Of a stretch of DNA of 32,000 nt, positions 1 to 32,000 are shown one piece after another; position 1 is the first letter of the stretch, and every line of letters starts with the position of its first letter. A program made the translations under genes and the position numbers. The notes beneath the pieces are model-generated. The model was given only the letters and a program-made list of their open reading frames with translations. It searched no databases and was not told the origin of the DNA. This DNA comes from Candidatus Saccharimonadota bacterium (GTDB lineage Bacteria; Patescibacteriota; Gracilibacteria; BD1-5; UBA6164), in the NCBI GenBank assembly GCA_965229705.1, contig OZ245922.1, forward strand, positions 720,001-752,000, given 5' to 3'.

Positions 1-1077
1 ATCAGCCGCAACAACAAGTATAGCAATGTCTGTAGATTTTGCTCAACGAGAACGCATGATAGTAAATGCTTCATGACCTGGAGTATCAAGAAAAGTAATT
101 TTTCTCCCTCCTGACTCTACCTGATAAGCCCCAATACTTTGTGTGATTCATCCAGCTTCCCCATCTGCTACCTTTGCCTGGCGGATATAGTCTAAGAGAG
201 AGGTTTTCCCATGATCTACATGACCCATGATAGAGATAACTGGTGGGCGAGACTGGAGCTTGGATGTATCTTCTTCTGCGAGAAGTTCTTTAATATTTCC
301 AGATACTATCTCAGAGGCTGAAATACCTGCAGAAGTGTCTTTTTCAAGTTTTACTTCAAAAGCTTCTGCAATAAGAGAAGCTGTATCAAAATCGATTTTC
401 GAATTGATTGTCATCATCATCCCATTCTTCATAAACTCCGCAATAAGTTTTGGAAGAGTAACTCAAATCTTTTCAGAAAATTCTTTCAGAGAAAGTACCT
501 CATGCACTACCACGGTCTCTCACGTACGAGTCGTAAGATTTTGTTCAATATCATTGATGTTTTTTTCTATCTTTTTTTTGTTCTTTATTTTATTTGACCG
601 AACAAATCACGCGTCTTCATCAATACTATTTTTATGCTTTTGACTCTTTTTTACTGGACTGAGTCGAGATTTTTTTTGCGCCTTTCTTTCATCTTGCCCG
701 GTAGGAGACTTGAGTGATCATTTCTGAGAAAATCAGGGCTTAAACTTTGGCGCTTTTTTTTCTTGAATTTCTTGTGGAGTATACTCAGGTTCTTTTTCTC
801 ATAAGACTTTATCTTCATGGTGTTCCTCCTGAGAATGAAGAACTACCTGAAAAGAAGACTTTTTTTCATTTTGTTCTAGTTGCTGATTGAGACTGATAGC
901 CTGACTATCTCATGATGGAGCTTGTTCTTGTAGAGGAGCTTGCTGAGAAGAGTCTTCTTTCGTAACTTCCACCTTTTTGACCTTCAATTTTTTGCGAATT
1001 TTCAGCTTTTTATCCTCCTTTGGAGCGTCATCATTCGCTGAAGATATACTGCTATAATAATCATCTTTTTGTACCAT
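1..1077 (-). CDS. infB: Translation initiation factor IF-2, N-terminal region through the G domain (5' end complete, 3' end outside the window)
   Basis: ATG at 1075-1077. The N-terminus is K/E/S-rich, followed by GTPase motifs [12 protein letters not shown] and DTPGHEAF. In-frame TGAs at 145-147 and 43-45 fall on the conserved Gly of GEAG-G-ITQ and SR-G-AK. The frame stays open to position 1. Track ORF 148..432 is an internal fragment. Confidence 0.9.
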
Positions 1078-1290
1078 ATATGCTTGTTTTTGAATTTTTT
1101 GAGTGAAATAAAAACATAGATAAAATATCTCTATAGAGCGAATAGTATGGCTTTTTTATATGAAGTCAAAATTTAGTTTCTCTCGAGAGGTTTTGGAGGT
1201 TTTCTTCGTATTTCTCAAAGTATAAAAAACTTGTAAATACCGCTTTTTTTATTAGTCTTCTTATACTAAAATATTTCCTAGAAAAACTGT

Positions 1291-1782
1291 ATGAATCCTG
1301 AAAGAATAACTGAAATATCTCAAGAGTTTTTTACAAAGCTTGGCGCAGATTTCTCAGAGTTGAGTGTTGCACTTGAAGCTGAAAATATATTTCGGATATC
1401 TCTTAAAAGTGAAGACTCTCATATACTGATTGGTCCTCATGGGAAAAATCTTGATGGCATTACACATATACTCAAAATCTTAGTTCAATGAGAATATGAA
1501 GAGTATATTACCATTCATCTTGAGATAAATGACTACCTCGAAAAAAAAGAGGAAAAACTCCTAAGATATATTCAAGGAAAAATAGATTATGTACAATCAA
1601 GTGGAAAAGAAATCACTCTCCCGTTTTTGAGTGCCTACGAGAGAAAAAAAGTACATTCCTATGTTTCTGAAAAGTGATGAAATGTTTTTACGCAAAGTAT
1701 ATGAGAATGAAAAGAGAGAAGAATACATTTGTGCAAAAAAGATGCAAAAATAACTATAGATATAGACGGAGACGATATTTAG
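1291..1782 (+). CDS. jag: Jag/KhpB-like RNA-binding protein (KH + R3H domains)
   Basis: KH-like GxxG segment (ILIGPHGKNLDGITHILK) and R3H-like segment (LPFLSAYERKKVHSYVSE). Track ORF 1291..1491 continues through TGA codons to TAG at 1780-1782, giving 163 aa. Confidence 0.7.
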
Positions 1783-1797
1783 AAAGTAGAGAGACAT

Positions 1798-2928
1798 ATG
1801 AAAAAATATATTTCTGCTTGCCTATTTTTTGTACTGATAAGTTCCACCTTGGTCTTCTTTTATATCAGTCATGGTTTTGGGTATAAAAAGCACAATGAAT
1901 ACGACGCTGTATATATAGAACATCCAGAGTTTCTTCCCCAGTCAGAACAGGCAAATATTGTCAGTTTTGGTTTTCAGAAACTGAGCGCAGATATGTACTG
2001 GATCAAAGCTATACAGTATATTGGCGCGAATGTTATATCAGAAGAGTATAAAAAATATCTTTTTGTGATGATGAATCTGATCACTGATCTTGACCCCTAT
2101 TTTTCGCAGGTATATGCTATAGGTCAGCTCCTACTACCAGATGATCATCACTCAACATGAGAGAGTACATATAATCTCCAGGCGAAAACTCTGGGGAAAA
2201 AATGAATAGAACACAATTGTGACGGAGATGCTGTAGATCGTATTTTTGAGCAAAATGATTTGTATACAATCCTCCATGATCCTCTCTATGCAAACCCATG
2301 CCAAGATTACAGGATCCCCTATTATCAATGATTTATAGAATACTTTTATTTTGATAACTACTCTCAAGCAGCCCAATACTACAAGCTGGTAAGCGCTCAG
2401 AAAGACGCTCCCGATTGAGCGAAAAACCTTGTTGCTATCATGACGGGAAAGTGAGCCGAAAGAGATATTGCTGTACGAATGTTTCTCTCTCTTGCTCAAG
2501 ATCTCACTTCTCAGGACGATGCCTGCTCTGACTTAAGCATGAGACTAGAAAATGCTTATGAGTTTCTACAGTCGCGAAGTACTCCTATTCCTTCAAGTCT
2601 CATCGAAGAGCTTTGAGTAATTTCAAAAGCATTTATGCCAGTATTCTCTGAAAAAATAGAGGCAGAACTCATGCAAAAAACACAGTGTACCAACTACCTC
2701 CTCAGATCTATTCGTGAAATCAATCTCTTATACCTCGAACAGGCATGAGAACGATATCTCTGAGACGCTCCAACAGCAGAAGACATCAGTCCTGATATCC
2801 TCCTGAAAAAAGGATATATCGATATCATTCCTCAAGATTTCCAAAAATATACTGACTCTGATAGAGGCATCATATATTTTTATGATCCAAACATCCAGGG
2901 ATTTGACTATAAGATGTGAAGACCCTAG
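1798..2928 (+). CDS. Membrane-anchored hypothetical protein (376 aa)
   Basis: N-terminal TM/signal segment (MKKYISACLFFVLISSTLVFFYI). Track ORF 1798..2160 extends through multiple in-frame TGAs with no TAA/TAG until 2926-2928. The start is 15 nt after the jag stop, so it is probably co-transcribed. Confidence 0.6.
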
Positions 2929-2947: not shown

Positions 2948-3919
2948 CTATAAGCCAACAACTCTTTTCAATTCCTCATATTTTTTATCAACGATGTCAT
3001 TTGCTCTTGCGTTTCCTCTCTCAAGACGAGTCTCTATCTCGTCGAAATGTTCTTCGTAGTACTTTCGTCGTTCTTGAAATGGTTGCAGGTATGTACTCAA
3101 GATTTCTAAAAGCTCCTGTTTTGCATGACCATAACCATATCCTCATGCAAGGTATTTTTCTCGAATAGCATTTGCATGCTTAGTGTCAGCAAAAAACTGT
3201 ATGAGTCGAAACACATGACAGTTATCTGGATTTTTCGTTGATTCAAGGGGAGTATCATCTGTGGGGATAGACATAATCTTTTTTTTCAGGACCTGAGAAG
3301 ACTCAAAAAGTCCTATAAAGTTATTATAGCTCTTACTCATCTTTCTCCCATCAAGACCAGGAATCAACCCCACCTCTTCGCTAATCTGCGCTTCCGGAAG
3401 AGTAAATATATTTGTTTGGTACCTGGTATTGAAAAATCCCGCAATATCACGAGCAAACTCTATATGTTGCTTTTGATCTTTTCCCACAGGGATTTTCAGT
3501 GCATCATAAGAAATAATATCTGCCGCCATTAAGAGAGAATAGTTGAAAAGTGCCATATTAATATCTGCATTTTTCTGCTGGGCATCTTTAAACGCGTGAG
3601 AACGAAGAATCAGACTATAGGGCGTCACCGAGGACAGGAGCCAAACAATATTCATCAAGTTCTTCACTTTTGACTGCTCAAAAATAATGATACTGTCTCT
3701 CTGTTCTTGTGGAATAAGTGAAAAATAATTTAGTAGTACCGATTTTCTATTGTGACGCATCTCATCAGCATTGTGCACAGTTGTCAGAGAGTGCATATCT
3801 ACTAAGGTAAGAAATGTCTCATGATCTTTTGCGAGCTCAAGCAGAGGCTGAAAAGCTCAAAGATAATTTCCCAAGTGTAGTTGCTCCGCACTACAACGAA
3901 GTCATGTTAAAACTCTCAT
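2948..3919 (-). CDS. trpS: Tryptophanyl-tRNA synthetase
   Basis: HIGH-type motif (QLHLGNYLGA), KMSKS motif, and GKDQKQHIEFARDIA. In-frame TGAs at 3902-3904 and 3140-3142 read as Gly (the latter in GGYGYGHAK). 323 aa, stop TAG at 2948-2950. Track ORF 3143..3796 is an internal fragment. Confidence 0.9.
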
Positions 3920-4089: not shown

Positions 4090-6429
4090 TTATCTTGCAA
4101 CTCTCTCAACAGAAAGGTATTCTCAAATAAACTCAGAGATGAGTGGTGCTGGTTTTTGGAGCATGCGAGAACCAAAACTGACTATCGTTCCTACTCATAG
4201 ATTTCATGAAGTTTCTTCTACCTTATATCTATTATCAACGAGCTGATCAATATTTCCATAGAGTGATCACTGTATCGTGAGCTGCGCGTCTGTAAGCTCT
4301 GATATGATATTTCATCCTCATGTTTCTCAAGGTATGGTAATATAAGTTCCGGTAATATTTTCTACATTTTCTTGTATATAAATATCTCCTCCTCTCACAA
4401 CATAGGCAATATTTTCATCTGTCACAATATCATCTCGAATAATCAAATCCGCGTCTTCAATAATATACGTTGTAGCATAAAAGAGATCTGGATCAGCTCT
4501 ATCAATCTCCAACTGTCTTCACTGTATATAGTATACCGAGCTCAGTCCATTGTAGTTTTCAAACTCACTATAACCTGTTACTGGAAGAGTACTGGTAAAG
4601 GTATTTGTCACAACAGCGTTTTGAAGTGCTGCCTCATGAGCGTCAGCTCGAGCTTGTTCTGAGTCAATCGCATCTGTGCTTGTTACTGATGCTGCCTGAC
4701 TTGAGATACCAGCGCTTCCTACCGATGTTCCTGTAAAGTTAATATCTGTTCCACTTGTAATAGCTCCAGCATCTGCTGTTGTTTGAATACTATTCACAAA
4801 CGATGTTCCTCCTCATACTGTTTTGACAACTGGTCTTGCAACTCGCACATTAAAATCTGCTGCAAAGTAGGCATCATAATACTCATTTCCTGCATCCTTT
4901 AGTGAGGTAGTGAGGACAATGTCTGAGTAACTTTTATTGTCTGGTACTCCATCTTTGTTTCCTTCATAAAAAGGGAAGAGCCCATAAGTATCTTTAAAAC
5001 TGATTCTCTCATAAGCATATATCATACTGTCTCCAACATCCACACAATACTCCCCCGCTATTCCTGTATTATTTCCCTGGATAAGAGCAAGTTCTCATCC
5101 AATAGTATCTGCAGAAGTGATCTTGATACACAGCTCATCAAACGAGAGATCATAATCTGAGTTATTGTAGATAAATGGGCTTTCTCCATCTTCGAGAGGA
5201 TTTCCTGTATGTCATACAACCTTTGATCCACTTGGTCCAAATATGATTTCTCCCTCATTTGGCCATGTAAGAATTTCAGCATCTTTTAGCTGACATGATG
5301 ATGAACAAGAAGCATCACTTGCTCCATTTGATGATCATGCATCACACTGCTCTCATGACTCTACTACTCCATTTCCACAGCTCGTAATAGTCGGAGTACA
5401 TGAGTCACTGGTTCTCCACGATTGCGTATCAAAATCTATTGTATCCACGCTACGATCATATACATAACATGTTGGCGTTGCTCCTGAACAGCTAAAACTC
5501 GCGTAGCGTCTTCCGTTGGTATCTTTTTGTTGATCCTCTGGACCGAGATATACGGTATTTCCTTGATCATCGTATCCACAAGTCATCATAAATGAATCTA
5601 CTTTTGAGTTTCCAATACATCGATACTCTGAAGATGAATCTTGAATAATATCATTACAAGCATAGCTAGATCATCCACTACTACCACTACTTGATACTGT
5701 GTTTATCGGTTGACAAGTGTTATCACATCAACCACTTCCCCAACCTTGATTTGTTGTATCATTTGGATCACATGTCTCTCCACCATTTACTTCTCCGTCT
5801 CAACAAAAGTTGACCATAACATCTGTACACTCATTGAGTTCTTTAAGATCGTTGAGATTGATATACTTAGTACTTGTTCCAAGGTCTACAACACTTGTTC
5901 TCAGACTCACACTTCCATCAGAGTTAAAGGTTTCAGTATAGTCGGTATAGTTCCAGTTTGCTGTTACCGGAGTATTACCACTTGAGCTCGAACGAGGCTT
6001 GAGATAATGAGTACTATGCAATATCTGTCCTGCAACTGTGGTATTGTCTTCTGGATGTCATACGACCTCAAATCCTTTATTAACAAATATAATCCCACTC
6101 TCAAGTGACGCAGGCATAAATGTCGACGTCATGCTCGTATCATTTGTCCCTGAGTGCGTAATATAGTTTGAGTTGAGGTTGTATACTGTTTGTGACCTCG
6201 AAGAACTAAACATAGCATCCGTCTCATTTGGGTAAAACTTTGCCCAATAGTCAAAGCTGTCTCCAGTATATGTGGTATAGGTATAACAGGTGTCACACGT
6301 TACTCCCTGAATGCTTTGTCATGGGTCACATGCGACCTCTTGCTGAGAGGCATAACTTCCTGCATATACGAGGCTCATAGCGAGCCCTACAAAGAGAACT
6401 AAAATGTCTCTCATCATCCTACGTTTCAT
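4090..6429 (-). CDS. Large secreted Cys-rich-repeat protein (779 aa)
   Basis: Signal peptide MKRRMMRDILVLFVGLAMSLVYA. There are two CGxGxxxxGExCD modules: CGDGEVNGGETCDPND..C..TC and CGNGVVESGEQCDAGSSNG..CSSSC. These resemble the Myxococcus-type cysteine-rich repeat. Track ORFs 4327..4512, 4519..4797, 4813..5043, 5353..5589 and 5800..6021 are all in one frame and separated only by TGA. Stop TAA at 4090-4092. Confidence 0.75.
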
Positions 6430-6691: not shown

Positions 6692-9451
6692 CTAGAAAGT
6701 ATCTCATCCTCCTGTATCTCCATCTTGATCTCATCCATCTCCTCCACCAGATCCATCATCACCTGGTGTTTCTTCTTCTGGTGTTTCTTCTTCTGGTGTT
6801 TCTACTTCTGGTGTTTCTTCTTCTGGTGTTTCTACTTCTGGTGTTTCTTCTTCTGGTGTTTCTACTATAGGTTGTCTTCGACTAGAGATTTGTTCAAAAT
6901 TCATTTTATAGATATCTCTTTGTGTGTCGTCTTCGAGAAGGTCTCTGACATTATGAGAATCTATTCTATTATTTGCTCGAAATCACCATCCAAAGAAGGC
7001 TTCAATAATATTTAGTTGTTCTCCATCTGATCACCTTTCTACAGTAAGATCAATTTGCTGATTTTTACCTTGCTTCAACAGTGGAAGATCCTCTTCGTGT
7101 ATGTAGTAATAATCACTATTAACTTTTACCGCAACATATCATGGATACTCTGAGACTCATCTTAATGCTGCCCTATCTTTATCTCATAAATGCTCTACTG
7201 TTATCGAAGGAAGTTCTACCAACTTATCATCTGCTGACATTCCTTCAATACCTTCACTTCATTGTCCATCTCCACGAGCACCTGTATCACTATTGTTATC
7301 ACGAGTATCTGCTACTGATCCTGTTGCTACTGGATGATCAAATGTCTCTACTGGTATCACTACGAGATTTCCTTCACAACCATTTTGCATCGTTGCATAG
7401 ATAGCTCCTGAATCTGCATCGTAGTAAGCATTTTCGAGCTGCATTGCTCCTGCAAGCTTCACTGACATATCAACAGAACCATCTGCTCATCGTCCTGTGA
7501 GGATATGTACTCTTGTAGTGAGAAGCTCAGCATTGATTCCAAGAAGTTCTTTGATTACTTCTGCTACTCATCCTTCTATTCCACTCTTAGACATCTTCTC
7601 ATGAAGCGCGTCTCGTTTTGCTGGCTGTTCGACTGTTTGAGCAATCCTATAATACGACCCTTCAAAGTCTTCTCCCAGTGTCCTCATATAATCTGCAAAT
7701 ATTCCTGATCCATGAAACAGAGCATCTGCGAGAGCTGTTTCCTTGTTTTCATAGTGTCCTTTTCCTTCTGCCATAATTGCTTCAAGAAGATCTTGCGCAA
7801 ATTCATCATTTTCAAACTTCATACCTCTTTGGAGTTTGAGTGCAATATATTGCGCATTTATATTTCTCTCATCGGCGCTCACTCCCTCTCCAGTATATCT
7901 TTCGGCTATTGCTTTATAGAGTAATTCTGCAGCCCTTTCGCTTGTAAGAGTTGCAAGAACCGCAAGCTCTTCATCTATTGCTTCTGCATTTTTTGGTGTT
8001 TCACTCTCAAGTCTTGCAGTTACGCTTTGATTATCTTGTATTTTTATGTATTTTGCAAGGACTTCCATCGCTTCTTCAGGATTTTCTCTTACTGCGCCCT
8101 CTGTTTGTGGTCATACATCCCCATCTACACTGATCTCAAACTCTTCTTGAAGTGCTTTAATAGCTCCTTTGTTCTTTTCTCTTTTCATAAGTTCCAATGC
8201 TGCGAGAGCCATCTGGACTTCTGGACTTTCAGATATGTTTTCTATATTATCAGGTCTTGGAAGAGGAAGAGGTACTTCATCTCAAGCATGTTCTCCCATT
8301 GCTGCAACCTTTGCTGTAGGATCAACCTGTGGTGTTTGAGTGTTATCTACTGGTGTAGCATCTTCTTCTGATGTATCATCAGTTCATCATCAGAGACCTG
8401 CTTGCAAAAATTGTGCTGCTGATGCAATATCAAGGCTTTCACTTCCTTCTGTTCCTCCTGCTATCTCTTCTTCATCTCCTTCTTGAGGAACTTGAGAGTC
8501 TCATCATTGATCTGCAGGCAAAGCTGCAGTCAAAGCTGCAATTCAATCTCGTACAAGTCATGAATAAGTTACTGATTGTGCAAGATCATTGTCCAGACTA
8601 TCTGGTCATTCATTCAAAGGTTTTGCCGATGCAGTGACTGCTGTTGTATCAACTGCTGCACCTGCCGCTGCAGCTGCCTCTGCCGCTGCGTCTGCAAGAT
8701 TTGCTGCATCTGCCTCTGCTATTGCGCTACCTGCAAGAACTACTGCTTGAGCGTACGCTCAAGCTGTTGTTCCATTTGTAGTCCATATTCCATCGACTCC
8801 TCCATTTTTTCCTCTGAGTGTGTATCCAAGTGCCTTGAGCTCTGTTTGAAGTGCTTTTACTTTTTCAGCATCACTTATATCTGCCTCTGCATCAAACGCA
8901 GCTACAACTCTATACGCTTCAAGTTTTCGGGCTGCTTCTGCTGCTGCTTCAGCTTCGGCTGCTAATCGCGCTGCTTCAGCTGCTCGGTGAAACTCTTCTG
9001 CTTTTTCTATAGAAATTTCTTGCGCTTTATTATTTATAGTATTAAGAATCTCTTGGTCTATCTCATCTCTACTACCAAGATTTAGTCCCGTAAGGTTATT
9101 GATATCTGCAAGGGAATTTGTCCCTATGATACCATCAATAGAACCATCTTTCACTCCTTGTCCATTCAGTCTTAGACCCTTAGTAATCACGTACTGAATT
9201 GTTTTTTGCTCCATTGGGTTCAAACCATCTGAGAGGTCTATAGTATCCATAAGATCTAGAGCCCCATCAAGAGTCTCTACCTCTGCAAGCTTTGTTGCTT
9301 CTTGCGCCTTTGGTTTTTCACTGAGAAGTTTTTCTGCTTCTTGCGCAGAGATATCACCATCACTGTCAGTATCATACCTTGAAGCTCCCTCAAATGAATT
9401 GTAAAGAGTAGCAAGGAATACTGTTTTTATAATCTTTATACCAGTAAACAT
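6692..9451 (-). CDS. Secreted coiled-coil surface protein with peptidoglycan-binding-like motifs, paralog 1 (919 aa)
   Basis: ATG at 9449-9451 and a hydrophobic N-terminus (MFTGIKIIKTVFLATL). Canonical EF-hand loop DTDSDGDISAQE at 9338-9373. PG_binding_1-like motifs (VKALQTELKALGY...VDGIW; AIKALQEEFEISVDGDVGPQT). Ala/Glu-rich stretches. A C-terminal block (HILTGRGADGSVDMS..LAGAMQLENAYYD..SGAIYATMQNGCEGNLVVIP) is shared with CDS 9788..12004. The tail is (ETPEE/ETPEV)n. Track ORFs 7259..7468, 7568..8068 and 8759..9529 are in one frame and joined by TGA. Confidence 0.75.
6764..6866. repeat. 15-bp tandem repeat, about 6.9 units, coding
   Basis: TGGTGTTTCTTCTTC alternates with TGGTGTTTCTACTTC. 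On the minus strand this encodes ETPEE/ETPEV repeats near the C-terminus of CDS 6692..9451. Confidence 0.9.
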
Positions 9452-9571
9452 AATATATATGTTAAAAAAATAAGTGTGTTTTTGTCCTTGAACAAAATAA
9501 CACATATATCGTACCATATATGAAAACAAAAATGCAAAAATAATACATTGACAAATGTATAAAATATTTTT
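9452..9571 (-). promoter_or_regulatory. Conserved upstream region/leader of paralog 1 (duplicate of 12005-12127)
   Basis: A 49-bp block at 9471-9519 is identical to 12025-12073. Candidate promoter in the minus sense: TTGCAT (9532-9537), 18-nt spacer, TGgTACGAT (-10 at 9508-9513). Imperfect leader hairpin TGTGTTTTTGT / ACAAAATAACACA at 9475-9504. Confidence 0.5.
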
Positions 9572-9787: not shown

Positions 9788-12004
9788 CTATCTCTGAATA
9801 GGGATAACAACAAGATTTCCTTCACAGCCATTTTTCATCGTTGCATAGATAGCTCCTGACACTTCATCATAATAGGCATTTTTGAGCTGCATCGCTCCTG
9901 CAAGCTCGAGAGACATATCCACAGAACCGTCTGTTCCTTGTCCTGTAAGAATATGCAGTCTCTTTGTCAGTAGAGCTTGATCTGCTCTTACAAGTTCCTC
10001 CATCACTTCTACTACTGATCCCTCTATACCTTGAGACATATTCTCCTCAAGTTTTTTTCGTCCATCAGGTGTTTTGAGAGTGTGAGAAATATCTGCGTGT
10101 CATCGACCAAAGGTATCTGGAAATGTTGCAAGATGTGTTGCAAATCTTCCTGATCCATGGTACAGAGCATCTGTGAGAGCTTTTTCAGTGTCTGTATAGT
10201 CTCCTTTCCCTTCTGCCATAATTGCTTCAAGAAGTTGTTGTGCAAATGGAGTTTTTCCCAGATTCATTTCCTGGAGTTTGAGAACGATATACTGAGCGTT
10301 CGCGTTTCGTTCATCGGCACTCACTGTTTCTCCCGTATATGTTTTTGCTATCTCTGATAACTTATTTAGAACTAGTGGTTGAATTCTTCAGTCAATAAGT
10401 TCTCTAAGAGTTGCTAAATCAGCATTTATTGCTTCTGCCTTTGCTGGTGCTTCGCTCTCAAGTCTTGCTGTGAGACTTTCGGTATCCTGCGCTGTGACAT
10501 ATGACGAAAGGAGAGAGATAGCCTTTTGAGGATCATTTGCTATAGCATTTCTCATTCGTATTTTTGTGATGCCTGTTTTTGGATCGATATTAAATCCCTC
10601 TTGAAGAGCCGTCTTCACTCCCTCATCTGACTGCATATATATCTCTATCATTTTGGAAGCAAGTCGGGCTTTTTCGAGGTTGTTTCTCGCTGCCTCTCTT
10701 GCACTATTTGCACTCTCAAACTCGCTTGTTTTAGTAGCAAATTCAGATGCTGCAGCAGTATGTACTTCTCTGAGACGCTCAAGTTCAGCATCATATTCAT
10801 CTTTCGCTGTTTGTGCAGTTGTAACAGCTGCTTCTGCATCTTCAAGAGCTGTTTGTGCAGCTGTGAGAGCTGCTTCTGCAGTTGTGAGAGCGTCTTCTGC
10901 ATCTTCAAGAGCTGTTTCTGCATCTGCTAAAACCTCTTCTGCTTCATGAAAACCAGCTCTTATACCATACCTATTCAATATATCGTCTCTATTTTTTTGT
11001 GCGCCATTTTTCTCTTGTTGTGCTGCTTCGAAATCTTCTTTTGCTGCTGTAAGAGCTGCTTCTGCATCTGCAAGATTTGCTTCTGCAGTTGCGACAGCTG
11101 CTTCTGCATCTGCGAGAGCTGTTTCTACTCCATTTTCATCGTTTTTTGTATTATGCGCAGCTTCTGCAGATTCTACTGCTTGTGTAGCTGCAGCTAAAGC
11201 ACTGTCTGCAGCTTCGAAAGCCTCTTGCGCTTGACTATATACATCTTCTAATGCTGAAAGATTCGACTCATCTTGTTTTTGTATTTCTGCTAAGAACGCC
11301 TCTTGTGTTGATCCACCCATAATTCCATCAACTCCATCATTGTTTCCCTTGAGTTCATACCCAAGTGTTTTTAGAGCTGTTTGAAGCTTTTCTACTTTTT
11401 CTTCATTGTCCCAGTTTGCCTCAGCATCAAAAGCAGCTACTACCTCCTGAGCTGCAGTTTTTTCTTCTTCAGCTGCTTTTTCTGCTGCTTCAGCTGCTGC
11501 TCTCTCTGCCTGGATTTCTGCTATCTTTGCACTAAGAGCTGCATTAGTTGCGTCAATAAGTTTTGTCATAATTTCGGGAGTAATAACTCCTCCATCATAG
11601 TCAGGTACGATAGAGCTTATCGCTGTCTTTGTCTTCCCTCCTATACGACCATCTATTCCTCACTCAAGAGTTCTTCCCTGAGAAAGCTCATGCAAGTGTA
11701 CTATAAACTGAACCGTTTTTTGCTGTGTCATCTTAGGATTATCTCGCGAAGAGTCTGGAGCTATATCTCAGAGTTCGCTTGCTATGTCAGCTTGAAGAGC
11801 GAGTCTCTCACCCATCTTCTCAAAAATGGTTTCCTGTATCTCTGCTGGAAGCTCTGAGAGATCTTGGATTTCTGAGAGATTGAGAGATTCATCTTGTAGA
11901 GCGTCAACTACGGTATCTGCTTGATCTGTAGGAGTATCTGGAGCGTTTGCAAGTGTCAAACACATACAAAAGAGTGTTTGCGTATTTTTTATAAAACTGA
12001 ACAT
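9788..12004 (-). CDS. Secreted coiled-coil surface protein with peptidoglycan-binding-like motifs, paralog 2 (738 aa)
   Basis: Signal peptide MFSFIKNTQTLFCMCLTLANA. PG_binding_1-like motif (VEKLQTALKTLGYELKGNNDGVDGIMGGSTQEA). A long Ala/Glu-rich heptad-like region. The C-terminal block is homologous to paralog 1. Track ORFs 9788..10039, 10100..10324, 10388..11569 and 11768..12004 are in one frame and joined by TGA. Stop TAG at 9788-9790. Confidence 0.8.
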
Positions 12005-14712: not shown

Positions 14713-14732
14713 ATTCTGGAGAGCATCTCTCA

Positions 14733-19006: not shown

Positions 19007-19310
19007 AATAAAAATGATTTTTACAAAAATAAAATATTGAAAACTTTTATAAAGTCTGAAAGTCATGTATAAGTGTTTATACGGGCATCTGCCACTATAA
19101 CTTTATGGGCTCGATAAAAATGGGAGTTATTGAAAAGATCTTTTGAGGGAAGCACGGAAAAATAAGAAATGTGTAAAAACAAGTAGTTCAAGGAAAAACC
19201 AACTTGGCTGAAATAAGCGTACTCTATTGTACGAGTTTGAAGACAATGTTGGATTTTGGCGATGAAATACGAAGTTTTTCCGCATTTCCCGAGATATTTC
19301 TCTTACCCCT

Positions 19311-20567: not shown

Positions 20568-20580
20568 AGGGTATTTTATT

Positions 20581-20958: not shown

Positions 20959-20960
20959 TT

Positions 20961-21320: not shown

Positions 21321-21326
21321 AGTTTT

Positions 21327-21734
21327 TTAGTATAAAAGATATATTAACAATCTCACCATCAGACCTGCCAAAAGAGCTATTACCAGAGAAATCAGTGAAG
21401 CGCTAAACATGGTTTTTCACTTTGTGAGGAGTTCATCTTGTCCGTTATAAATAATCATATATCACGCTGAAAGCGTCATAAAAACGAGCGCAACGACTCC
21501 AAACATCACAATAAGTTTTTCCAAAACAGTGAGTAGCACATTTTCTACTGTTTCTTGTGTCGTTTGACCAATAAACTCTGATCCTCAAGGCGCAATAGTA
21601 TTTACATCTATCATAAACTCTTCGCAGGAAATATTATTTTCACTTGATCCACTACATTTTCGTGCCTCAGCTCAAAAAGTGGAAAAAAGTAAGGAAAAAA
21701 GAACACAGGAGAGTATTCCTATTCGTATCAGCAT
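21327..21734 (-). CDS. TrbC/VirB2-like small membrane protein, paralog 1
   Basis: Signal peptide MLIRIGILSCVLFSLLFSTFGAEA, helix, charged loop (YNGQDELLTKGKTMF), helix. 135 aa. Confidence 0.5.
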
Positions 21735-21845: not shown

Positions 21846-22991
21846 ATGAAAATCGCCATCGTCCATGAAATGCTGATAAAGCTCTGAGGCGCAGAAAAAG
21901 TCGTAGAATGCTGGAAAAACCTCTACCCAAATGCTGATATTTTTACACTTCTCTATGATGAAAAAAAAGTGTGAAATATATTTCCGCCTGAGTGTATTGA
22001 TAGATCATGTTTTTCTCTTGCTTCTCAAAGATGCTACCAACTCACAAAAAATGCTCGTCTGTCTCTTGTATTTATGCAGCGTTCTATAAAAACTCTCGAC
22101 CTCAGAGACTATGATATTGTTCTTGTGAGTTCAAGCTCTTTTGCTCATAGATGTGAGGTCTGAAAGCATACAAAAAAAATTGTATATTATCATGCTCCTG
22201 CTAGGTATCTCTGGGACTGGACGCATGAATATCGCAGAAGTATCAGAATGAATGTTGGGATTTTAGGTTTTTTTTATGGTCAGTATATGAAACACCTACG
22301 CATATGAGACCTCGAGGCGTGAGGGCAATCTCATATAGCTCTCGCTAATAGTCAAACAACTCAGGGTCGTATCAAAAAATATTATCGAAAAGACTCTGAT
22401 ATCGTCTATCCTCCAGTAGATACGCAAAGATTTGCAACAAAGCTTAGGGGTGATCTTTGTACATGAAAAAGGGAGGTAGCAAAGTGAAACTTTTATATTA
22501 TTCTCTCTGCTCTGACAGAATTTAAGCGCATAGAGATTGCTCTTCATGCGTGGAAGCATATCTCTGATGTTGATCTCTATATCATATGAGAATGAAGCTA
22601 CCAGAGTGAGCTAGAAAAACTCTCAAGTACCCATACACATTTTCTCTGAGCGAAGTTTTGAGATGAGCTCGTGTTTTTGGTGCAAAAAAGTCTTGGTTTA
22701 ATTTTCCCATGAGAGGAGGATTTTGGCATTGTTCCTATTGAGATACTAGCAGCAGGAAAACCAGTCTTTGCTCTGAGAGCCTGAGGTCTCACGGAGACGC
22801 TCGCAGAGTGAGTGAGTTGAGAGTTTTTTGAAGATGCTAACGGATCAGATTTTGAAACTGCCTTTCATAGGTTTCATAAAAACAATCTTGCAGGAAAATA
22901 TTTGGCAAAAAACTGTCGAAATCAAGCAAAAAAGTATGATATACAGATTTTTGAGAACTATTTTTCTGAGCTGTTGAAGAGAGAATTGTAA
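21846..22991 (+). CDS. Glycosyltransferase, GT4 family
   Basis: MKIAIVHEMLIKLGGAEKVV N-terminus and the E-x7-E region FPGEEDFGIVPIEILAAGKPVFALRAGGLTETL. 381 aa, open through many TGAs with no TAA/TAG until 22989-22991. Absent from the standard-code track. Confidence 0.8.
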
Positions 22992-23257: not shown

Positions 23258-24595
23258 ATGAAATACCTCATATATCCTCTTCTTATTCTTCTCCCCCTCC
23301 ACGCTCTCATCATCACTACCCTCAAGTGCAAGTTTTGAATAGATACTGATATTCTTCGGTTTTGGAAAGAAATATTGATCGTGATACTCTTATGATGCGT
23401 CTTTTTTCACACACTGAGAAAATATGATTTTTCCCTCAAAAAAATATATCATAAAAATACACTACTCGGACTCACAACTGCCTTTATATTTTCGAGCCTC
23501 TTTTTTATTTATTTTCCTTTTATGGAAATAAAAATAGCATCACTACTAGGATTTCGCTATGATGTATTTTTTCTGCTGGCCCTGATTATTGGACTGTATA
23601 TAGGAACTCAGCAAGAACTTCGAAGATATATCTCTACTCTTTGTATCATCAGTTTTGGTATTCTCAGCATTTTTTTGCCCTGGTATCTCTTCGGTGATAT
23701 ATCCAGCGTGAGCCAGATATTTTGATACTCATCCGAAGTCTCAACATACAAGGCCAATAACTGTATTAGCTTTGCTCAAAATGTTGAGGGAGAACATCGT
23801 TTTCAGGGAACATTTGGAGGACCTATTCGATTTTCGGTATTTCTCACGATGATAGTATGTCTGTTTACGGGCGTATTTTTTAGCTCTCAAAATAACCTCT
23901 CAAAAACACAAAAAATATGACTCTACTGACTCATACTTCTCCCCTTTGTTGTGGCAATATTTTTCTCTTACTCAAAAACTTCGGTATTGTGACTCCTGTT
24001 TGCAGGATGATGTATGTGACTCTTGAGCTATCGTTATATATACCGTAAAAAAATCTCTCAAAAAATATATGCTCTTGCTGCAACTCTTTTTTGCCTCCCA
24101 CTCTTTGTTATTGCACTTTTCAAGTGGGAACTCTTTCTCCATCTTGGAGCCGTAGTAAACAGAGCCGAAAATCTCGCAAAATCATTTGAAATGTTCCTCT
24201 ACAATCCTTTTGGGCATGGCCTGGGAATCGCAGGTCCCGCAAGTCAGATAGGAAACTCTATTGAGTCAGCTGGAAACTGGATTATCGCAACAAATACTGT
24301 AACAAAAGTACATAAGTTTCTGCCAGAGAACTGGTATGTACAAATACTTCTTGAACAGTGAATTATTGGTTTTGTGATATTTGTTTCTCTCCTCATACTC
24401 ATCTGATACCGACTCTTCGAGCTCGTGAAGCGCAAACGAGATATTCTCTCTGTGAGTATATTTTCTGCATTTTTATCACTATGTTTTATGGCACTTTTTA
24501 CGCACGCATTTGAAGAAGCAGCCACAAGTTATATACTCTTTTTCTTCATCGGACTCGTACTTGCTGACAGTATAACAAAAGAACAAAACACATAA
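23258..24595 (+). CDS. O-antigen ligase / Wzy_C-family polytopic membrane protein (possible O-oligosaccharyltransferase or polymerase)
   Basis: Multi-TM protein with motifs RFQGTFGGPIRFSVFL, YSKTSVLGLLFAG, NPFGHGLGIAGPAS and ENWYVQILLEQGIIGF. These are arranged as in Wzy_C proteins. 445 aa. Track ORFs 23522..23725 and 24023..24361 are in-frame fragments. Confidence 0.7.
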
Positions 24596-24604: not shown

Positions 24605-26305
24605 ATGAAACATATCAATCTCCTCTTAACTCTCATACTTTTCTTGGGAACGCTCTTCCATATAGGATTTTTGCATCTCAATGAGGTACTCAAAGTTGCT
24701 GACAGTTTTGCGTATCTGCAAATGGCATATTTTCTCTGAGAGCTTTCTCCAAACGGTCTTGGGACGGGATGGTTTGGATTTTTGTATTCTTTGCCTATTG
24801 CCCTCATAGACACTCTCGTATGAAATGATTTTCAGAGCGCCCAGATAGTCAACCTCATACTTCTCAATATTTCTGCCGTACTTGTCTGGATGATAGCTCG
24901 AAAAATTCTTTCTGAGAGTTCTGCGTATTTGGTGGTTATTTTGTTTTTTCTCTCTCCGACACTCCTGCATTTTCATCTCCATATTCTTTCAGAAAATATA
25001 TATATACCCCTTTTCTTACTCCTATTTCTCCTGGTATGGAACTTTGTAGAAACACTCAGTGAAAAAAATACACTCATGAAAGGTCGAGATATGATGCTCA
25101 TAGCCTTTGTACTTGCCCTCATGTATTTTACTCGAGCTGAAGCATTTATATATATCCTTTCTCTGTGTACTCTCTGAGTGATACTTCTTATTCAAAAAAA
25201 GATCTCATGGATACAAATGTTTTGTCTCTGAATACTATTTTGTATAACATTTTTCCTCTGCATATTTCCTTATCTGTTTCATCTGCACTCCCTGAGTGGG
25301 GAATGGTCTCTCACCAATAAATGAGCAAGTAATCTCCGTCAGGCAGAACTCAGAGGAGTAGAAAAAATGGATGATGCTGGTTTTGAAAGAGCTGTTGCAG
25401 AACTCACACCTGACAATACCCAACTTATTGCTGGTTTTGCGGGAGGTATGTCATACACTGAGCCACAAATAGATATGTCTCTGAGAGAAATGTTTTGAAA
25501 AAATCCAGAAAAATTTATAGGGCGTATTTTCATCAATCAAAAAAAGCTCTACACTCACAATCTTCCCGAGATTTTTCTCTGAAAATCTGTCAAACTCTTC
25601 TCCTCTGATGATGCGCGATTTGCAAATATTTTTTTCTTGATATGTCTCTGTATTCCTCTTGTTATTGTCCTATGATGAGCTATTACTTTGTATCAAAAGC
25701 AGCGAAACTTTGTGATGATTTTCTTGTGTTTTTTTCTACTGGCAAGTCTTTTTTTCACGCTCTTTTTTACTCTCAATAGATACTTTTTGATATTTTTTCC
25801 TGGAATGCTGATATTTTTTGTACATGGAGCTCATATACTCCCAAAAATCTCTGGAAAAAAAATACTTACTTATACGAGCATTGCATGATATATATGACTA
25901 TGCCTGCTTTCTGTGTCGGTATACTCAAAAACCGAGTCTCCAAAAGATGATTTTTACGCTCTCAAGAAAGAGGCAGGAATGTGGCTCAATAATACTATAC
26001 AGCAGGGAGAGTGACTGAGTTTTCGGCATGATAATCTACGAATTATGGAACGCTTTCCTGTTGTAACATATTACGCTGGTTCTCGAGAACGCTTTATTAC
26101 CCCCTATACTGACGATATACAAGATGTATATGAGTACGGGAGGTTCAATGATATTGATTTTCTCGTTGTTGATACTATGGATTTTCAAAGATATAGACCA
26201 GACTTAATACATGCGTTGGAAAATACTCCAGAAAACTTTGAGAATGTTCGTGAGTTTCATGGGCTGATGTGAGAAAAAGTTATTTTGTACCGGCTTCGTA
26301 AATAG
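24605..26305 (+). CDS. Polytopic membrane glycosyltransferase-like protein (GT-C fold, ArnT/PMT/GT39-like)
   Basis: 566 aa with many TM helices and an acidic first-loop motif (VADSFAYLQMAYF). A soluble C-terminal domain follows. Track ORFs 24890..25177, 25688..25888 and 26045..26272 are in-frame fragments. Stop TAG at 26303-26305. Confidence 0.45.
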
Positions 26306-26318: not shown

Positions 26319-27089
26319 ATGAAGCATCACACAGCATACCATATCCTCTTTGTCGCGGCTCTCCCATGAGAGATGAAGATCCTAAAAATGCTCTATAAAG
26401 ATCAGTCTTCTCAAAAAATGAAGGCTGATTTTCTAGTGTCTTGAGTCGGATCGCAAAAAACAAGTGTTGCTCTTACAGAGGCTCTTACTCACAAAAAATA
26501 TGATTTTGTGATAAATATCTGAGTATGTGGGTATAGAGAAAATTCCCGTAGCTGTATTCAGATACTCCGTAGCGTAAAAAAAGAAACCAGCAAAGAAATA
26601 CTCACTCCTCTCTTCTTTGAGTATGCTCCTCTCAGAAGTATCCTTACATCTGATCTTCCTCACTATGATCTTCCTGTAGAGTTTGAGTATGGTGATATGG
26701 AGAGTTATAGTATCGAGCATGTATGTGAATATTTTCGTATTCCTCGGATGATTCTCAAAGTACCTGTTGATAAGGTAGGAGAAGAAACAGAGCATTTTGA
26801 TATCGTCCGTGCTCAAAAAATGCTTGAGAAAAATATTGATATGAAAAAACTACTCGAAGAGCTAGAAAAATATCTAAAAAGCCTTCCGGAAAAAACTGAT
26901 ATTTCTCGATACTGAGAACACTACCGCTTTACGGCAAGTGAAAAAATAATTTTTGAAAAATACTATCTCACATTTACCAGTCTGTCACATGAATCTTTTG
27001 GAGATTTTTTTAAAAAATATCAGCACTTGTGAAAAAAGGATTTTTTCAAAAAATGTGAAGAAGTAAGTATGAAACTTTCGTGTTTATAA
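26319..27089 (+). CDS. Nucleoside phosphorylase-superfamily protein (MTA/SAH/5'-deoxyadenosine nucleosidase-like, Pfs/MqnB-like) with a C-terminal extension
   Basis: ILFVAALPGE, SGVGSQKTSVALTEAL, FVINIGVCGY and GDMESYSIEHVCEYFRIP..LKVPVDKVG follow the PNP_UDP_1 motif order. 256 aa. Track ORF 26697..26915 is an internal fragment. Confidence 0.6.
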
Positions 27090-27112
27090 GGTGTTACTTT
27101 AGAAGAAATATT

Positions 27113-28099
27113 ATGCTCATCTACCTCGAAACATCAGCAAAATCATATCCTCAAACAAAAAAAATTTTGAGCAAGTTTTCACATGCAACCATCATCGAAA
27201 TAGACAATTATAAAAATATTTTTGACAAACATACTGCGTGAATGAAAGAACAAAAGTCTCTCATCATCGCAAAACTTTGCTCTCCAGCACTCACTCCTGC
27301 ACCAGTGTGATATGGTCATAGTAAAGATGCTTTTTTCTTTAAAACCTCTCTTGGTTGTATATATGACTGTGATTATTGTTTTCTTAAAGGAGCGTTTCAG
27401 ACAGAACACATGGTATTTTTTGTGAACTATGATGACATCAAAAAGCAAATCCAAAAAGCTATTACTTCTCTCAATGAAAAATATTCCACAAACACAAAAC
27501 ATCAGCAATTATGGTTTTATAGCTCTGACTATAGTGATATTCAGTGAATGGATGGTATATCTGGGTTTAATACAGAATTTATTGAATTTTTTGAAACATT
27601 TCCGTGAGTCAGTATGGAGATACGCACAAAATCATGAAATATCCAAAGTCTTTTAGATATCTGATATGCTCCAAAAAATACCGAAATCGCATTTTCTCTC
27701 AATCCTCAAAAACTCATAGAAAAGTATGAGAAGAAAACTGCGAGTCTTGATATGCGACTGAAAGCTATCAACACTCTGACTCATGCAGGCTGGCGAGTAG
27801 GGATTCGACTCCTCCCACTCTTACCAGTAAAAAACTATCAAAAAATATATCGTGAGTTTTTTTATGAACTTCACGAAAAGATAGATATTTCTAAACTCTC
27901 TTCGAGCTTTGCATCAGGACTACTGTTTACCAAAAGAGACTATAAAGTCATGCTCAAGAAATATCCTCATCTAGATATACTTCACTATCTCTCACTTGAA
28001 GATGATGATTTTTATCGAGAATCTCGAGAGGTAAGAGACTGGTTTTATCGGGAAACAAAGAAACTCGATAAAAATTGTTTATTGTGTTTGGAAGGATAA
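27113..28099 (+). CDS. splB: Spore-photoproduct-lyase-like radical SAM protein
   Basis: CxxxCxxC cluster (GCIYDCDYCFLKG) preceded by an SplB-like N-terminus (IYLETSAKSYPQTKKILSKF..ATIIEIDNYKNIFDK). 328 aa. Track ORF 27752..28099 is the C-terminal fragment. Confidence 0.7.
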
Positions 28100-28113
28100 T
28101 CTCAGAAATATTC

Positions 28114-31100
28114 CTACCTCAAAATATAACTTCCATCTATACTGTATATCAGCTGAGCAACATTCAAGCCTGTCTCTTTATTCACGAGTATAAGAGATAT
28201 CTGATCCTCTACATTACGATATAATAGCTCATATTCCTCTGTTCTAGTATGTACTCTCCCATCTTGAAAGACCGTCATTACTGGTTGAGATCTCGTATCG
28301 TTTCAACGGAAAATCATCATTGAGCCAGGATTGTATGAAACTCCCAGAGGTACTCGCGCGATAGAGTACTCCTCCTGGTCTAAAAGACGCAGATACATTC
28401 ATGGATTTTCAGGGATATCTCGGTTTCAGATGAGCTGTGTTTCTCCTTGTGGCTGATAAATATATTGACGAAATACGAGCTCTCCAGCTCTCTGTATCTG
28501 CAACTCAGGATATACAGAACTATTTGCCTCATCATTACTAGCAAGTACCCGTATCCTTGCGAGAGGGTCTTGGATATCTATTTGTCCCGTATACTCATCT
28601 ATCTCTGCAAGAGTTGTTCCTTGATATTCTACATATAGTCATGACCGTTCATCCCCAACATCAAAACTGTAGTTTCCTCCACTCTCACTCACAGAAACCC
28701 CTGATCAATCAGCAGAAGAAAGTTGTTGAAGTACTCATCATCTGTATCTGTATAAACTCACAGGATTTCACGAAAGTTCTTCATCTATCACTCACTGGAT
28801 TTGCGAATCTTCTACCGATTGTATGAGTGGTGTAGGACTATAAACTTCCAGAGTCACTTGCGAAGAAGCCAGATTTCCATTATTATCAAGGGCTAAAAGT
28901 GCTACTTGTTTTTCAAACAGCTCTTCATACGGTCCAAAAGTTATTTCTATCCTTGCTGGCGAGAGGCTCACAGAAATATTTTCCTCATCAAAGTCATTGC
29001 GTGGGTCACCATCACCATCAGAGTCTTGTGTCAGATCTGCATCAAGTCAAAACTTTTCTATACCTCACAGACCTCCATCTTCATATATGTATGGTGTCAT
29101 ATTTATGGTATGAGTTTGATACACTGGAACACGAATCGTGTCACTATACCCTATCTGAGGAGCAAAGACATCTGCCTGTTCTTGTGGAGCAAGGAGTATT
29201 TGCTGAGAAATAGTTGCTGGCAAGTCTCATGAAAATGCTTCAGCGCGAGCATAGTACATACCATTTTCTTGTGGGACTCTCACAGAGTAGTTTTCTCCCT
29301 CTTGTACTCAACCTGCAAGCTCGTAAATCCTATATGATGATACCTCCTGCATATCAAGCGATATATATGATCCATCAGCATGTACAATATCTATCTGCGA
29401 AGACGAAGTATATAACGAAGCATCGTTCTCTCGCTTGAGTACTGCTCCTGGGAGGAGAGGAATTCACTGAAGTCGGCTCACATCTGTGATATCTTCGAGG
29501 ATTTTTGCTCACACATACGCATCTCAAGAAAGCCCCTGTATCTCGATAGATTCTGGAAAACGAATATTTTGATACTTCATCACTTTCTGTTTTTTTCGTG
29601 ATCCATCGCGTTCAAGATACTCTATCTCAAAACTTCTATTTCCTGCATACAGAGGACTATTTGCGGTCAATACCACCGTGGTATTATTTGCAAGCTCTTG
29701 TCTGAGAGATACCAATTTTTCTTGTGTGAGTCGGACTCACTTAGTATTTCATAGTGAGTGTATATATGCAATATTTTGCTGAAGAGCTGCATCACCGTTT
29801 TGAGAGAGATCTAGCGCATCGATAATATGAACCTCATTTTTTTCATTTTCTCTATCTCGCATATATGCATCAACGAAACTGTGATAATAAATACGAAACT
29901 GTGAAATACGATCATCACTTGGTTTGGCAAAAGAAAAGTTGAGAAAACCATCGCTCGTCGTTTCTGCAGAAAAATAGTTTAAGGCTTCTACATAACTCTC
30001 TCCATTGAAAAAAGTATTTTGTGATGACTTTTGTACAAGAGGAGCTCATGAAATATGATTTTCTGATGTTTCTGGCGCTGATGAATAATTATCTTTATAA
30101 TAGAGCGTCCCTGATGAAAAGTATAAAATATCTTCATCGCCATCATTATCCATATCTTTCATATATGGTTCTTCATCACCATCAAGAAAATCTGTATAGT
30201 CAAAGAGCTGATAGTTTTTATCTTCTTCCACCACATATATTCACTCATACTGATAATCTGTCGCAGCATCTGGTCGACAACTGGCTCAGTGTGTTTCTCA
30301 TCACTGTGTTCAAGATGAGTCTTGCGCAAAGAGTCTTCGCTCATCAATAAATTTTTCTATGGTTCTGGTTTCTTGCTTGAGCTCTGATTCGAGCTGTGTC
30401 GTAAAATGGTCTTCACCATCAGCAAGGGCAATAATACTCTCTAAACTTCGGCTATTATATGGAGCAAGCTGATGTTTGTAAATATCGCGTTTGCTGTTCG
30501 AAGATTGTGCTCTTATCTGGATAAAACTTTCTGGATTTTCTCTGTTTCTCAGACGCTCCTGAAGTTTTTGTATTTCTTGTATTTCATGAGTGAGAATATT
30601 TTGTAAGAGGTCGAATTTTTCTTGATTATGATTTTGGAGGTCTTGTATCAGAGCATCTTCTATCACTGTTTCTCTGTCTCGAACAGATTTCCAGAGATGC
30701 TGAAGTTCTTGAGCGCCAGAGTTTGGTTCTCACACACTTGCAATGAGTCCCTGTGATACATGAGTGATAAACTCATCATTATCCATATATATACTGCTGG
30801 CATTTGAAAAGTTTTCTAAGAATGAAAGAATTTTTCGGGTAAGTATCCCAGCTATCATCGCTCATACTTCTTCCTTATAAGAGATATCAAACCCTTTTGT
30901 ATTTATATTAATATCGCTTGGAGTAGCATTTCGCAGGTTAATATCGGAAGCTCTAATATCAAACATCTGAGTAATGTTATTGGTCATAGCATCAAGTGGA
31001 GCTGTGACTGATCTCATAATCTCGATAAGAAACTCTGTTTCAAACTCAAAATTTACATAGTTCGTAACTCTGATAGCAGAAATAGTAGAGTAGGAGAAAC

Positions 31101-32000
31101 TTGGAAATTGAATATCAAGAAAGTCTGTAGGAAGATATCCATTTCGTTCGGTGAGAAAGGCAATTTGATCTCATGCTCGCCACTCAGGTACAAAAGGAGA
31201 TCCTTTGATGAGACACATAGTCTTGATAATCAACTTCATAATATCTAGTACTATCTCCACTGAACCAAAAATCTGCGGTATTTGAGGTGGTGGTGGCAGG
31301 TGAGGGAGCTCTATTGCTGGAAGTACTGGGAGGTCTGGTAGCTCTGGAAGTGTATATATTGGAAGTAGAGGCAAAGATGGAAGAGTCGCTCAAAGTTCTG
31401 GAAATTCTGGCAAAAAGAGATCTGGAAGAGTTGGCAGAACAATAGGACGCAAACTGATATCAAAGTCTGGGAGATATATCGTCATTCATGCTCTGATATT
31501 ATGAAAATCGAGAATAATATCTGGCCAAGATGGAAACTCTATAATAGGAGGTGTTGGTAATACCACAGATATGAGCTGAAAAATAAAGTCTTGAAGATCT
31601 TGTCTCTCATTTTTACATTCTTGACACTCTGCCTCATAACCAATAAATACATCTATAAATAGTTGCCAAGACTTTAAAATGGCTTTTATCAAAATATAGA
31701 GTTCCACCCACGCCTTAAATCGCTGACCATTTTTCTTGAGCCAGTCTCACATGAGGTTTGAAAGGATTTCGATATTATAGAGAATTTGTCATAGCCATAC
31801 TTCTCGGATATTAATGAGACTCGCAAGACGCTCTGGAAATTTTTTATATTCTTCGAGTATCGCAATATTTTGTTCTAGAGATGATATGAGTGCTCATGAC
31901 TGGAGATAGAGCTTGTTACGTATATCATTTTCTCTTTCACATCTTTCTTGCTCTGCAGGAGTTTCTTTGTCACATGCCTTTCAAAGACTCCATTGCTCTG
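28114..32000 (-). CDS. Giant secreted/surface protein, C-terminal ~1295 aa (5' end outside the window)
   Basis: There is no in-frame TAA/TAG from 31998 down to TAG at 28114-28116. Track ORFs 29524..29715, 30046..30234, 30310..30666, 31171..31374 and 31486..31707 share this frame. Contains an LP-rich repeat tract, Asp-rich Ca-binding-like loops (DSDGDGDPRNDFDEEN; DMDNDGDEDI) and a coiled-coil segment. Confidence 0.75.

Follow-up and report, generated by a model that had tools for sequence, protein, structure and literature searches.

UGA as a glycine codon in a 32-kb chromosomal segment of an uncultivated member of the Gracilibacteria (BD1-5)

Background

How is the codon UGA read in a genome segment where it occurs in frame in nearly every gene, the essential ones included? 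This question is raised by a stretch of 32,000 nucleotides from Candidatus Saccharimonadota bacterium (NCBI GenBank assembly GCA_965229705.1, contig OZ245922.1, positions 720,001 to 752,000 of the forward strand), which is called the window here and has a guanine plus cytosine (GC) content of 37.8%. With the standard bacterial code, the longest frame between two stops has 423 codons and the frames of at least 100 codons sum to 59% of the window. An earlier note on this DNA, made from the letters alone, had proposed that UGA is a glycine codon throughout. Our analysis bears this out. Alignments with solved homologues, Pfam scores and the interchange of TGA with GGN codons, seen both among 32 relatives and in the near-identical strain L153, all indicate that UGA means glycine in the window, and neither tryptophan nor stop. 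Almost certainly, the window stems from the chromosome of an uncultivated member of the Gracilibacteria (BD1-5) that uses NCBI translation table 25, with UGA as an ordinary glycine codon and UAA and UAG as the sole stops.

This recoding is already known in Gracilibacteria and was described in 2013. The reassignment of UGA to glycine in table 25 (the code of Candidate Division SR1 and Gracilibacteria) goes back to Campbell 2013 and Rinke 2013 (both cited in PMC8629427), has been validated by proteomics (PMC4032931) and is established for Gracilibacteria and Absconditabacteria (PMC8629427, PMC4032931, PMC6851277).

Results and discussion

Reading frames with TGA as a sense codon

Coverage was measured as the fraction of the window that is occupied by greedily chosen, non-overlapping open reading frames (ORFs) of at least 100 amino acids. 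It amounts to 44% with table 11 and to 91% if TGA is read as sense and TAA and TAG are the sole stops. Control recodings, in which TAA or TAG was made sense instead, reach just 58%, and the gain in open frames is therefore specific to TGA.

The final map comprises 25 coding sequences (CDS) that are conserved or assignable. They cover 92% of the window and contain 202 in-frame TGA codons, which are spread over 24 of the 25 CDS including the essential genes infB, trpS, pyrH, yidC and rnj. The CDS ends are 13 TAA, 11 TAG and one CDS running off the window; in all, two CDS run off it, infB and the gene of the giant protein at 28114..31998. For the tryptophanyl-tRNA synthetase (TrpRS) and RNase J, the C-terminus coincides with the final residues of the solved homologues, as expected for genes of normal length with UAA and UAG kept as stops. 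Five ORFs of the first greedy pass (g10, g11, g15, g19 and g22) were rejected as spurious. The conserved genes rnpA and rpmH and the fourth of the pilin-like genes lie there on the other strand, and they were added to the map after the removal of the ORFs that had hidden them.

The earlier note had counted 26 long CDS ending only at TAA or TAG. The nature of the ends holds, but our count is 25, a 26th small ORF being unconfirmed. It had also stated that the gene of the GT4 glycosyltransferase and three of the four pilin-like genes are absent from the standard-code track, and indeed the table-11 list contains no ORF of at least 60 amino acids in the frames concerned.

In-frame TGA codons at glycines of conserved proteins

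For gene identification, TGA was masked as X in the translated proteins, which were then searched against Pfam; due to this masking, the searches are not biased toward any amino acid. The masked proteins were also aligned to homologues of solved structure, none of them from a code-25 organism, and the counts given below refer to the homologues shown in these alignments. Since the genes for IF-2, UMP kinase (PyrH) and TrpRS lie on the minus strand, their TGA codons appear as TCA on the plus strand.

In PyrH, the TGA codons 10, 47 and 48 correspond to glycine in 5/5 solved homologues. The same is true for TrpRS codons 6 (4/4) and 21 (5/5), for RNase J codons 258 (18293-18295) and 566 (17369-17371; 4/4 each) and for IF-2 codons 310 (148-150) and 345 (43-45; 5/5 each). 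Altogether, there are thus nine TGA sites with glycine in every solved homologue shown. Four more sites in GT4 align to glycine, two of them in all homologues shown (codons 248 and 313) and two in the best homologue (codons 214 and 268), while the remaining TGA codons of GT4 are variable. Less uniform are codon 119 of PyrH (K/G/G/N/N), codon 259 of TrpRS (G, G, D, A, E), codon 205 of IF-2 (A/S) and the variable codons 374 and 583 of RNase J. In YidC, no TGA codon is uniformly matched by glycine (codon 159: G/N; codon 224: K/G). Not a single TGA codon aligns to tryptophan in the solved homologues of PyrH, TrpRS, RNase J, IF-2, GT4 and YidC. The window itself offers a comparable pair, since LTGR[TGA]ADGS in the protein encoded at 6692..9517 aligns with LTGQGTDGS in its paralogue encoded at 9788..12004.

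These results agree with the claim of the earlier note, that in-frame TGA codons fall on invariant glycines of universal proteins. Its individual positions were right for the tandem TGA-TGA of the UMP kinase gene (15617-15622), for SR[TGA]AK in IF-2 (43-45) and for 3902-3904 in trpS. Two were one codon off: GEAG[TGA]ITQ of IF-2 lies at 148-150 and not at 145-147, and the last TGA of trpS lies at 3143-3145 and not at 3140-3142.

The Pfam domains were rescored after translating TGA as X, G or W. In this order, the bit scores are 96.8 / 116.4 / 89.1 for AA_kinase of PyrH, 45.6 / 64.8 / 42.8 for Glycos_transf_1 of GT4, 52.8 / 65.7 / 55.9 for GTP_EFTU of IF-2, 141.2 / 150.2 / 140.8 for tRNA-synt_1b of TrpRS, 148.1 / 153.5 / 144.2 for 60KD_IMP of YidC, 30.7 / 41.5 / 25.0 for R3H of the Jag-like protein and 90 / 92.8 / 87.7 for the SPL domain. 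For most top domains the order is G > X ≥ W, and the score of the top domain is lower with W than with G in every protein tested. With W, the scores of the secondary domains Glyco_transf_4 and KH hardly change or rise slightly. The check that the earlier note had suggested, retranslation followed by profile searches, comes out in favor of glycine: TGA as sense restores the long CDS, and most top domains score highest with G.

Codon-level comparison with related genomes and a near-identical strain

When species-representative genomes were scanned with RNase J as the query, 32 loci (L001-L032) with 53-75% identity were obtained. They are titled as metagenome-assembled genomes of Candidatus Gracilibacteria, Peribacteria or Patescibacteria, with the exception of L008, which is called just "bacterium". 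The gene order is kept in the relatives across g08 to g24, which corresponds to approximately 12.4-26.3 kb of the window. Judged by RNase J identity, gene order and the titles of the nearest genomes, the sequence belongs to the Gracilibacteria (BD1-5) / Absconditabacteria clade, which is where the earlier note had placed it.

For the comparison of codons, X was again put for TGA in translating the frames of the relatives; the products were aligned to the proteins of the window and then traced back to the codons, so that the result does not depend on any annotation. Across the 32 relatives, the TGA codons of the window are paired with TGA in 30.7%, with glycine codons in 27.7% and with tryptophan in 1.2% of the cases, and 21 of the 22 pairings with tryptophan come from one site. 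Conversely, 27.8% of the GGN pairings of the window are with TGA, and TGG is paired with tryptophan in 71%. A column was regarded as conserved if at least 70% of the non-TGA residues of the relatives are identical. At 31 of the 35 TGA sites in such columns the residue is glycine, compared to a glycine background of 8.8% (binomial p = 6e-29), and the controls with GGN, TGG, CGA and TGT behave as expected. Individual examples are codons 258 and 566 of RNase J (glycine or TGA in 32/32 relatives), codon 57 of the LPXTG-like protein (glycine or TGA in 15/18 relatives) and codons 117, 150 and 229 of the CDS at 15767..16825 (glycine or TGA in the relatives). The earlier note had named TGA positions mainly at tryptophan or at protein termini as the result that would speak against it. 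What we found are the low share of tryptophan pairings given above and long conserved frames.

The near-identical strain L153 is represented by a metagenome contig in ENA and shares 95-100% protein identity with the window. It retains 88 of the 97 aligned TGA codons. Five of the nine changed ones are GGN codons and one each is CGA, TGG, ACG and TGT; in addition, one GGA of the window is TGA in L153.

The amino acid composition fits as well. Glycine makes up 4.8% if only GGN is counted and 6.9% with TGA added, which means that TGA supplies approximately 30% of the glycine codons of the window. Among the relatives, this share differs widely, from approximately 6% in L011 (4.9 TGA compared to 72 GGN per 1000 codons) to approximately 85% in L025 and L028 (57-59 TGA compared to 10-11 GGN per 1000 codons).

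The comparisons also bear on two other codes. If TGA codons were real stops, as in the standard code, they would have to be explained by pseudogenes, sequencing errors, selenocysteine sites or programmed readthrough. Nothing beyond the default assumption supports this view. The sheer number of in-frame TGA codons and their presence in essential genes, the occurrence of TGA or GGN at the same positions in 32 other genomes, the retention of most TGA codons in the independent assembly of L153 and the failure of the TAA and TAG controls to restore long ORFs make it next to impossible.

The other code is table 4, where UGA is tryptophan, as in Mycoplasmatales, Entomoplasmatales and several insect endosymbionts, with the loss of release factor 2 (RF2) as the presumed enabling step. 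The resemblance is that a small genome, low in GC, has turned the stop UGA into a sense codon, and UGA plainly is one in the window. Moreover, one TGA is located at a conserved tryptophan (GT4 codon 154) and one corresponds to TGG in L153. A public collection holds the window proteins only as TGA-to-tryptophan translations, which reflects the default of a gene caller and is no evidence. The difference is the amino acid, glycine and not tryptophan. No solved homologue has tryptophan opposite a TGA codon, W lowers the score of the top domain relative to G in every protein tested, the few TGG pairings stem almost entirely from one site, and tryptophan would rise to 2.6% of all residues from 0.55% encoded by TGG alone. 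Table 4 also predicts that the transition between TGA and TGG dominates among close relatives; the changes in L153 are mostly to GGN, which counts against it. The aligned codons thus contradict the defining feature of table 4, UGA at conserved tryptophans and interchange of TGA with TGG, and a tryptophan code in the window is hardly conceivable.

Sites that do not fit glycine and the possibility of ambiguous decoding

Some observations weigh against UGA as glycine and have to be considered here. Positions that vary account for about 40% of the aligned TGA sites and are uninformative either way. Two TGA codons, codon 18 of PyrH (L/Y/F) and codon 116 of RNase J (Y/Y/M/M), have aromatic or hydrophobic counterparts in the solved homologues; both are variable in the relatives. 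ARAGORN found no tRNA gene in the window. Codon 154 of GT4 (22305-22307) is a TGA at the tryptophan of an LR.WD motif, which is encoded by TGG in 21 of 23 relatives. It is the sole TGA at a tryptophan conserved in the clade. The codon is also TGA in L008, apparently independently, and glutamine in L030; since it is the same in the window and in L153, it is not an assembly error. Finally, codon 357 of the PMT_2-like protein (25673-25675) is TGA in the window, TGG in L153 and a codon for Y or F in the relatives.

It is possible to read the two last sites as a sign of ambiguous decoding, with UGA translated mostly as glycine and to an appreciable extent as tryptophan, for instance by a near-cognate tRNA-Trp(CCA) in a cell without RF2, and with TGG-to-TGA changes being partly tolerated. 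The apparently independent TGA in L008 would be in line with this, and so would the 23 columns with a majority of tryptophan, where TGA occurs twice and GGN never. A potential ambiguity between UGA and UGG via wobble at U34 has been noted before (PMC8629427). However, two cases compared to none is a tiny count, a single transition, favored by AT-biased mutation, leads from TGG to TGA, tryptophan at codon 154 adds just 1.9 bits to the score of the N-terminal Pfam domain of GT4, and all data presented here are sequence data. Ambiguous decoding as a property of this code is therefore very unlikely. Likewise, there is only a slim chance that UGA might be partly read as tryptophan at a few sites such as 22305-22307 of GT4, through a near-cognate tRNA-Trp in an RF2-free cell. 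If this were true, partial decoding as tryptophan would make TGG-to-TGA changes at tryptophan sites tolerable. Most simply, GT4 codon 154 and PMT_2-like codon 357 are explained as TGG-to-TGA transitions that would have replaced tryptophan by glycine.

tRNA(UCA) and release factors

Within the 32 related loci, ARAGORN detected a single tRNA(UCA). It is located at 17187-17265 of the syntenic relative L032, 5 kb from the RNase J gene. ARAGORN labels it as selenocysteine tRNA (SeC) because of the anticodon alone, while Rfam recognizes an ordinary tRNA (45.9 bits). This tRNA has the pairs G1:C72, C2:G71 and G3:C70, the discriminator base U73 and an encoded CCA. Exactly these three pairs together with U73 have been used as criteria for calling a tRNA(UCA) a glycine acceptor (PMC8629427).

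A pattern built from the tRNA of L032 matched at least 120 metagenome contigs. Among the 120 matches listed (L033-L152), 76 carry an almost invariant version of 76 nt with the family pattern GCGGGGGTAACATAA.AGAGTGAGTGTACTAAGGCTTCAACCCTTGGGTGTGC.AGTTC.AACCT.GTCCCCCGCT. Of these 76 family loci, 48 have a length of 4 kb or more; their mean ORF coverage is 0.37 with table 11 and rises to 0.90 once TGA is taken as sense. Thus, the tRNA(UCA) travels with recoded genomes. No synteny was found between the metagenome tRNA loci and the window.

The 76-nt tRNA-Gly(UCA) has an unusual D-arm (ACAU / AAAAGAGUGA / GUGU), a possible anticodon stem of 6 bp and an encoded CCA, and it is kept across contigs with a GC content from 18% to 44%. 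Matches of 68-74 nt outside this family were rejected. Most of them resemble a tRNA-Gly(UCC) with a 6-nt loop, CTTCAA, that lacks one C, and probably represent indel errors mimicking UCA. Many of their contigs (L035, L036, L042, L044, L048 and others) show poor ORF coverage with either code, and about one third does not reach 50% even if TGA is read as sense.

Concerning termination, none of the available BD1-5 genomes was found to contain prfB, while prfA is present (PMC6851277). From the relatives and the literature, we infer that the source genome probably possesses a tRNA-Gly(UCA) and has probably lost prfB. A dedicated tRNA-Gly whose anticodon is UCA would then decode UGA, UGA would not act as a stop owing to the loss of RF2, and release factor 1 (RF1) would terminate translation at UAA and UAG.

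CGA and CGG

In Absconditabacteria and in "some Gracilibacteria", tryptophan is additionally encoded by CGA and/or CGG (Shulgina and Eddy 2021, PMC8629427). The window shares the assignment of UGA to glycine and the broad clade with them, and it is conceivable that it uses such an extended code, in which one or both of these codons are reassigned from arginine to tryptophan. CGG is indeed scarce in the window, with 14 codons. In the more distant relatives (L010, L012-L032), CGA is lost or nearly lost, and their rare CGG is paired with a tryptophan of the window in 16 of 17 cases, at codon 258 of g16 and codon 125 of g21. This pattern matches the published reassignment of CGG to tryptophan in some Gracilibacteria.

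The window differs from these genomes. CGA is its second most used arginine codon with 8.6 per 1000 codons and encodes arginines 334, 354 and 409 of RNase J, all of them matched by arginine throughout the solved homologues shown. In the conserved columns with CGA, the residue is arginine in 10/10 cases. Both CGA and CGG are paired with R or K in the relatives, CGG never with W, and in the closest relatives (L001-L009, L030, L031) the two codons behave as in the window. Since CGA is found at invariant arginines and CGG is paired with R or K, the window keeps both codons as arginine. On this codon evidence, the code is plain table 25 and not the extended code of the Absconditabacteria, which is extremely unlikely to apply here.

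Compared to table 25 itself, no difference was detected. The shared features are UGA as a frequent sense codon for conserved glycines, termination at UAA and UAG alone, a low GC content and nearest relatives within the Gracilibacteria; in addition, a relative of the window carries a tRNA(UCA) with glycine identity elements. All testable features match table 25.

Gene content of the window

The 25 CDS are listed in Table 1.

Table 1. Coding sequences of the window as read with TGA as a sense codon. Positions refer to the window.
Gene or product	Position	Strand	Basis and remarks	In-frame TGA
infB (IF-2), N-terminal part, runs off window	1..1077	-	Pfam GTP_EFTU and IF2_N	9
KhpB/Jag-like protein, KH and R3H	1291..1782	+	Pfam	5
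CDS, function not assigned	1798..2928	+	open frame with TAA/TAG stops only, no Pfam match	9
trpS (TrpRS)	2948..3919	-	Pfam tRNA-synt_1b; TGA at 3902-3904, 3857-3859 and 3143-3145	3
Large secreted or surface protein, 779 aa, Cys-rich	4090..6429	-		18
Large protein with PG_binding_1 domain	6692..9517	-	Pfam; paralogue of the gene at 9788..12004	21
PG_binding_1 protein	9788..12004	-	Pfam; paralogue of the gene at 6692..9517	4
Surface protein with LPXTG-like C-terminal anchor	12410..13117	-		2
yidC	13211..14380	-	Pfam 60KD_IMP, PDB alignments, relatives; true start may be upstream	7
rnpA (RNase P protein)	14365..14733	-	Pfam	3
rpmH (L34) with conserved 38-aa C-terminal extension	14733..14975	-	Pfam L34	0
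pyrH (UMP kinase)	15068..15760	-	Pfam AA_kinase; TGA include the tandem 15617-15622 and 15731-15733	5
CDS, function not assigned	15767..16825	-	conserved in 21 relatives	8
rnj (RNase J)	17093..19066	-	Pfam, PDB alignments	5
Peptidase_Mx1-like metallopeptidase	19311..20150	-	Pfam	5
T4SS-pilin-like 1 of 4 in tandem (span 20163..21734)	20163-20618	-	Pfam PF18895	6
T4SS-pilin-like 2 of 4	20581-20958	-	Pfam PF18895	3
T4SS-pilin-like 3 of 4	20961-21320	-	Pfam PF18895	2
T4SS-pilin-like 4 of 4	21327-21734	-	Pfam PF18895	4
GT4 glycosyltransferase	21846..22991	+	Pfam Glycos_transf_1, PDB alignment, relatives	15
Wzy_C (O-antigen ligase-like) membrane protein	23258..24595	+	Pfam	10
PMT_2-like membrane glycosyltransferase	24605..26305	+	Pfam	13
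CDS, function not assigned	26319..27089	+		5
Spore-photoproduct-lyase-like radical SAM protein	27053..28099	+	Pfam SPL	7
Giant protein, >1294 aa, runs off window	28114..31998	-		33

Ribosomal protein L34 of the window has 80 amino acids, while solved bacterial L34 proteins have 37-53. Residues 6-42 match the Pfam L34 domain and residues 43-80 (SYPKRYQEINGKAKMHIIAGGTARKSPFDGKGNYIKRK) form the C-terminal extension, for which no match was found in Pfam or PDB. The entire protein, tail included, is 77-94% identical in approximately 20 relatives, whose RNase J proteins share just 53-75% identity. The TAA stop of rpmH overlaps the ATG of rnpA (TAATG).

The two paralogues on the minus strand between 6692 and 12004 have in common PG_binding_1 domains as well as a conserved domain of approximately 250 amino acids at the C-terminus, and the first of them ends with a tract of ETPEE repeats. 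The pair adjoins the Cys-rich secreted protein on one side and the LPXTG-like anchored protein on the other.

Conclusions

All other readings of the window depend on the choice of the code. If table 11 is applied, the gene of GT4 and three of the pilin-like genes are lost and essential genes are fragmented, and with table 4 approximately 200 glycines are turned into tryptophans. The latter affects existing data, since a large public protein collection contains the exact proteins of the window only in the table-4 version and not in a version with glycine. Tests of glycine versus tryptophan by homology to database proteins of the clade are therefore circular or misleading, and tryptophan would appear at TGA positions by mistake in alignments that draw on such entries. 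The window represents one more ordinary example of code 25, from a lineage among the Gracilibacteria that retains CGA and CGG as arginine codons.

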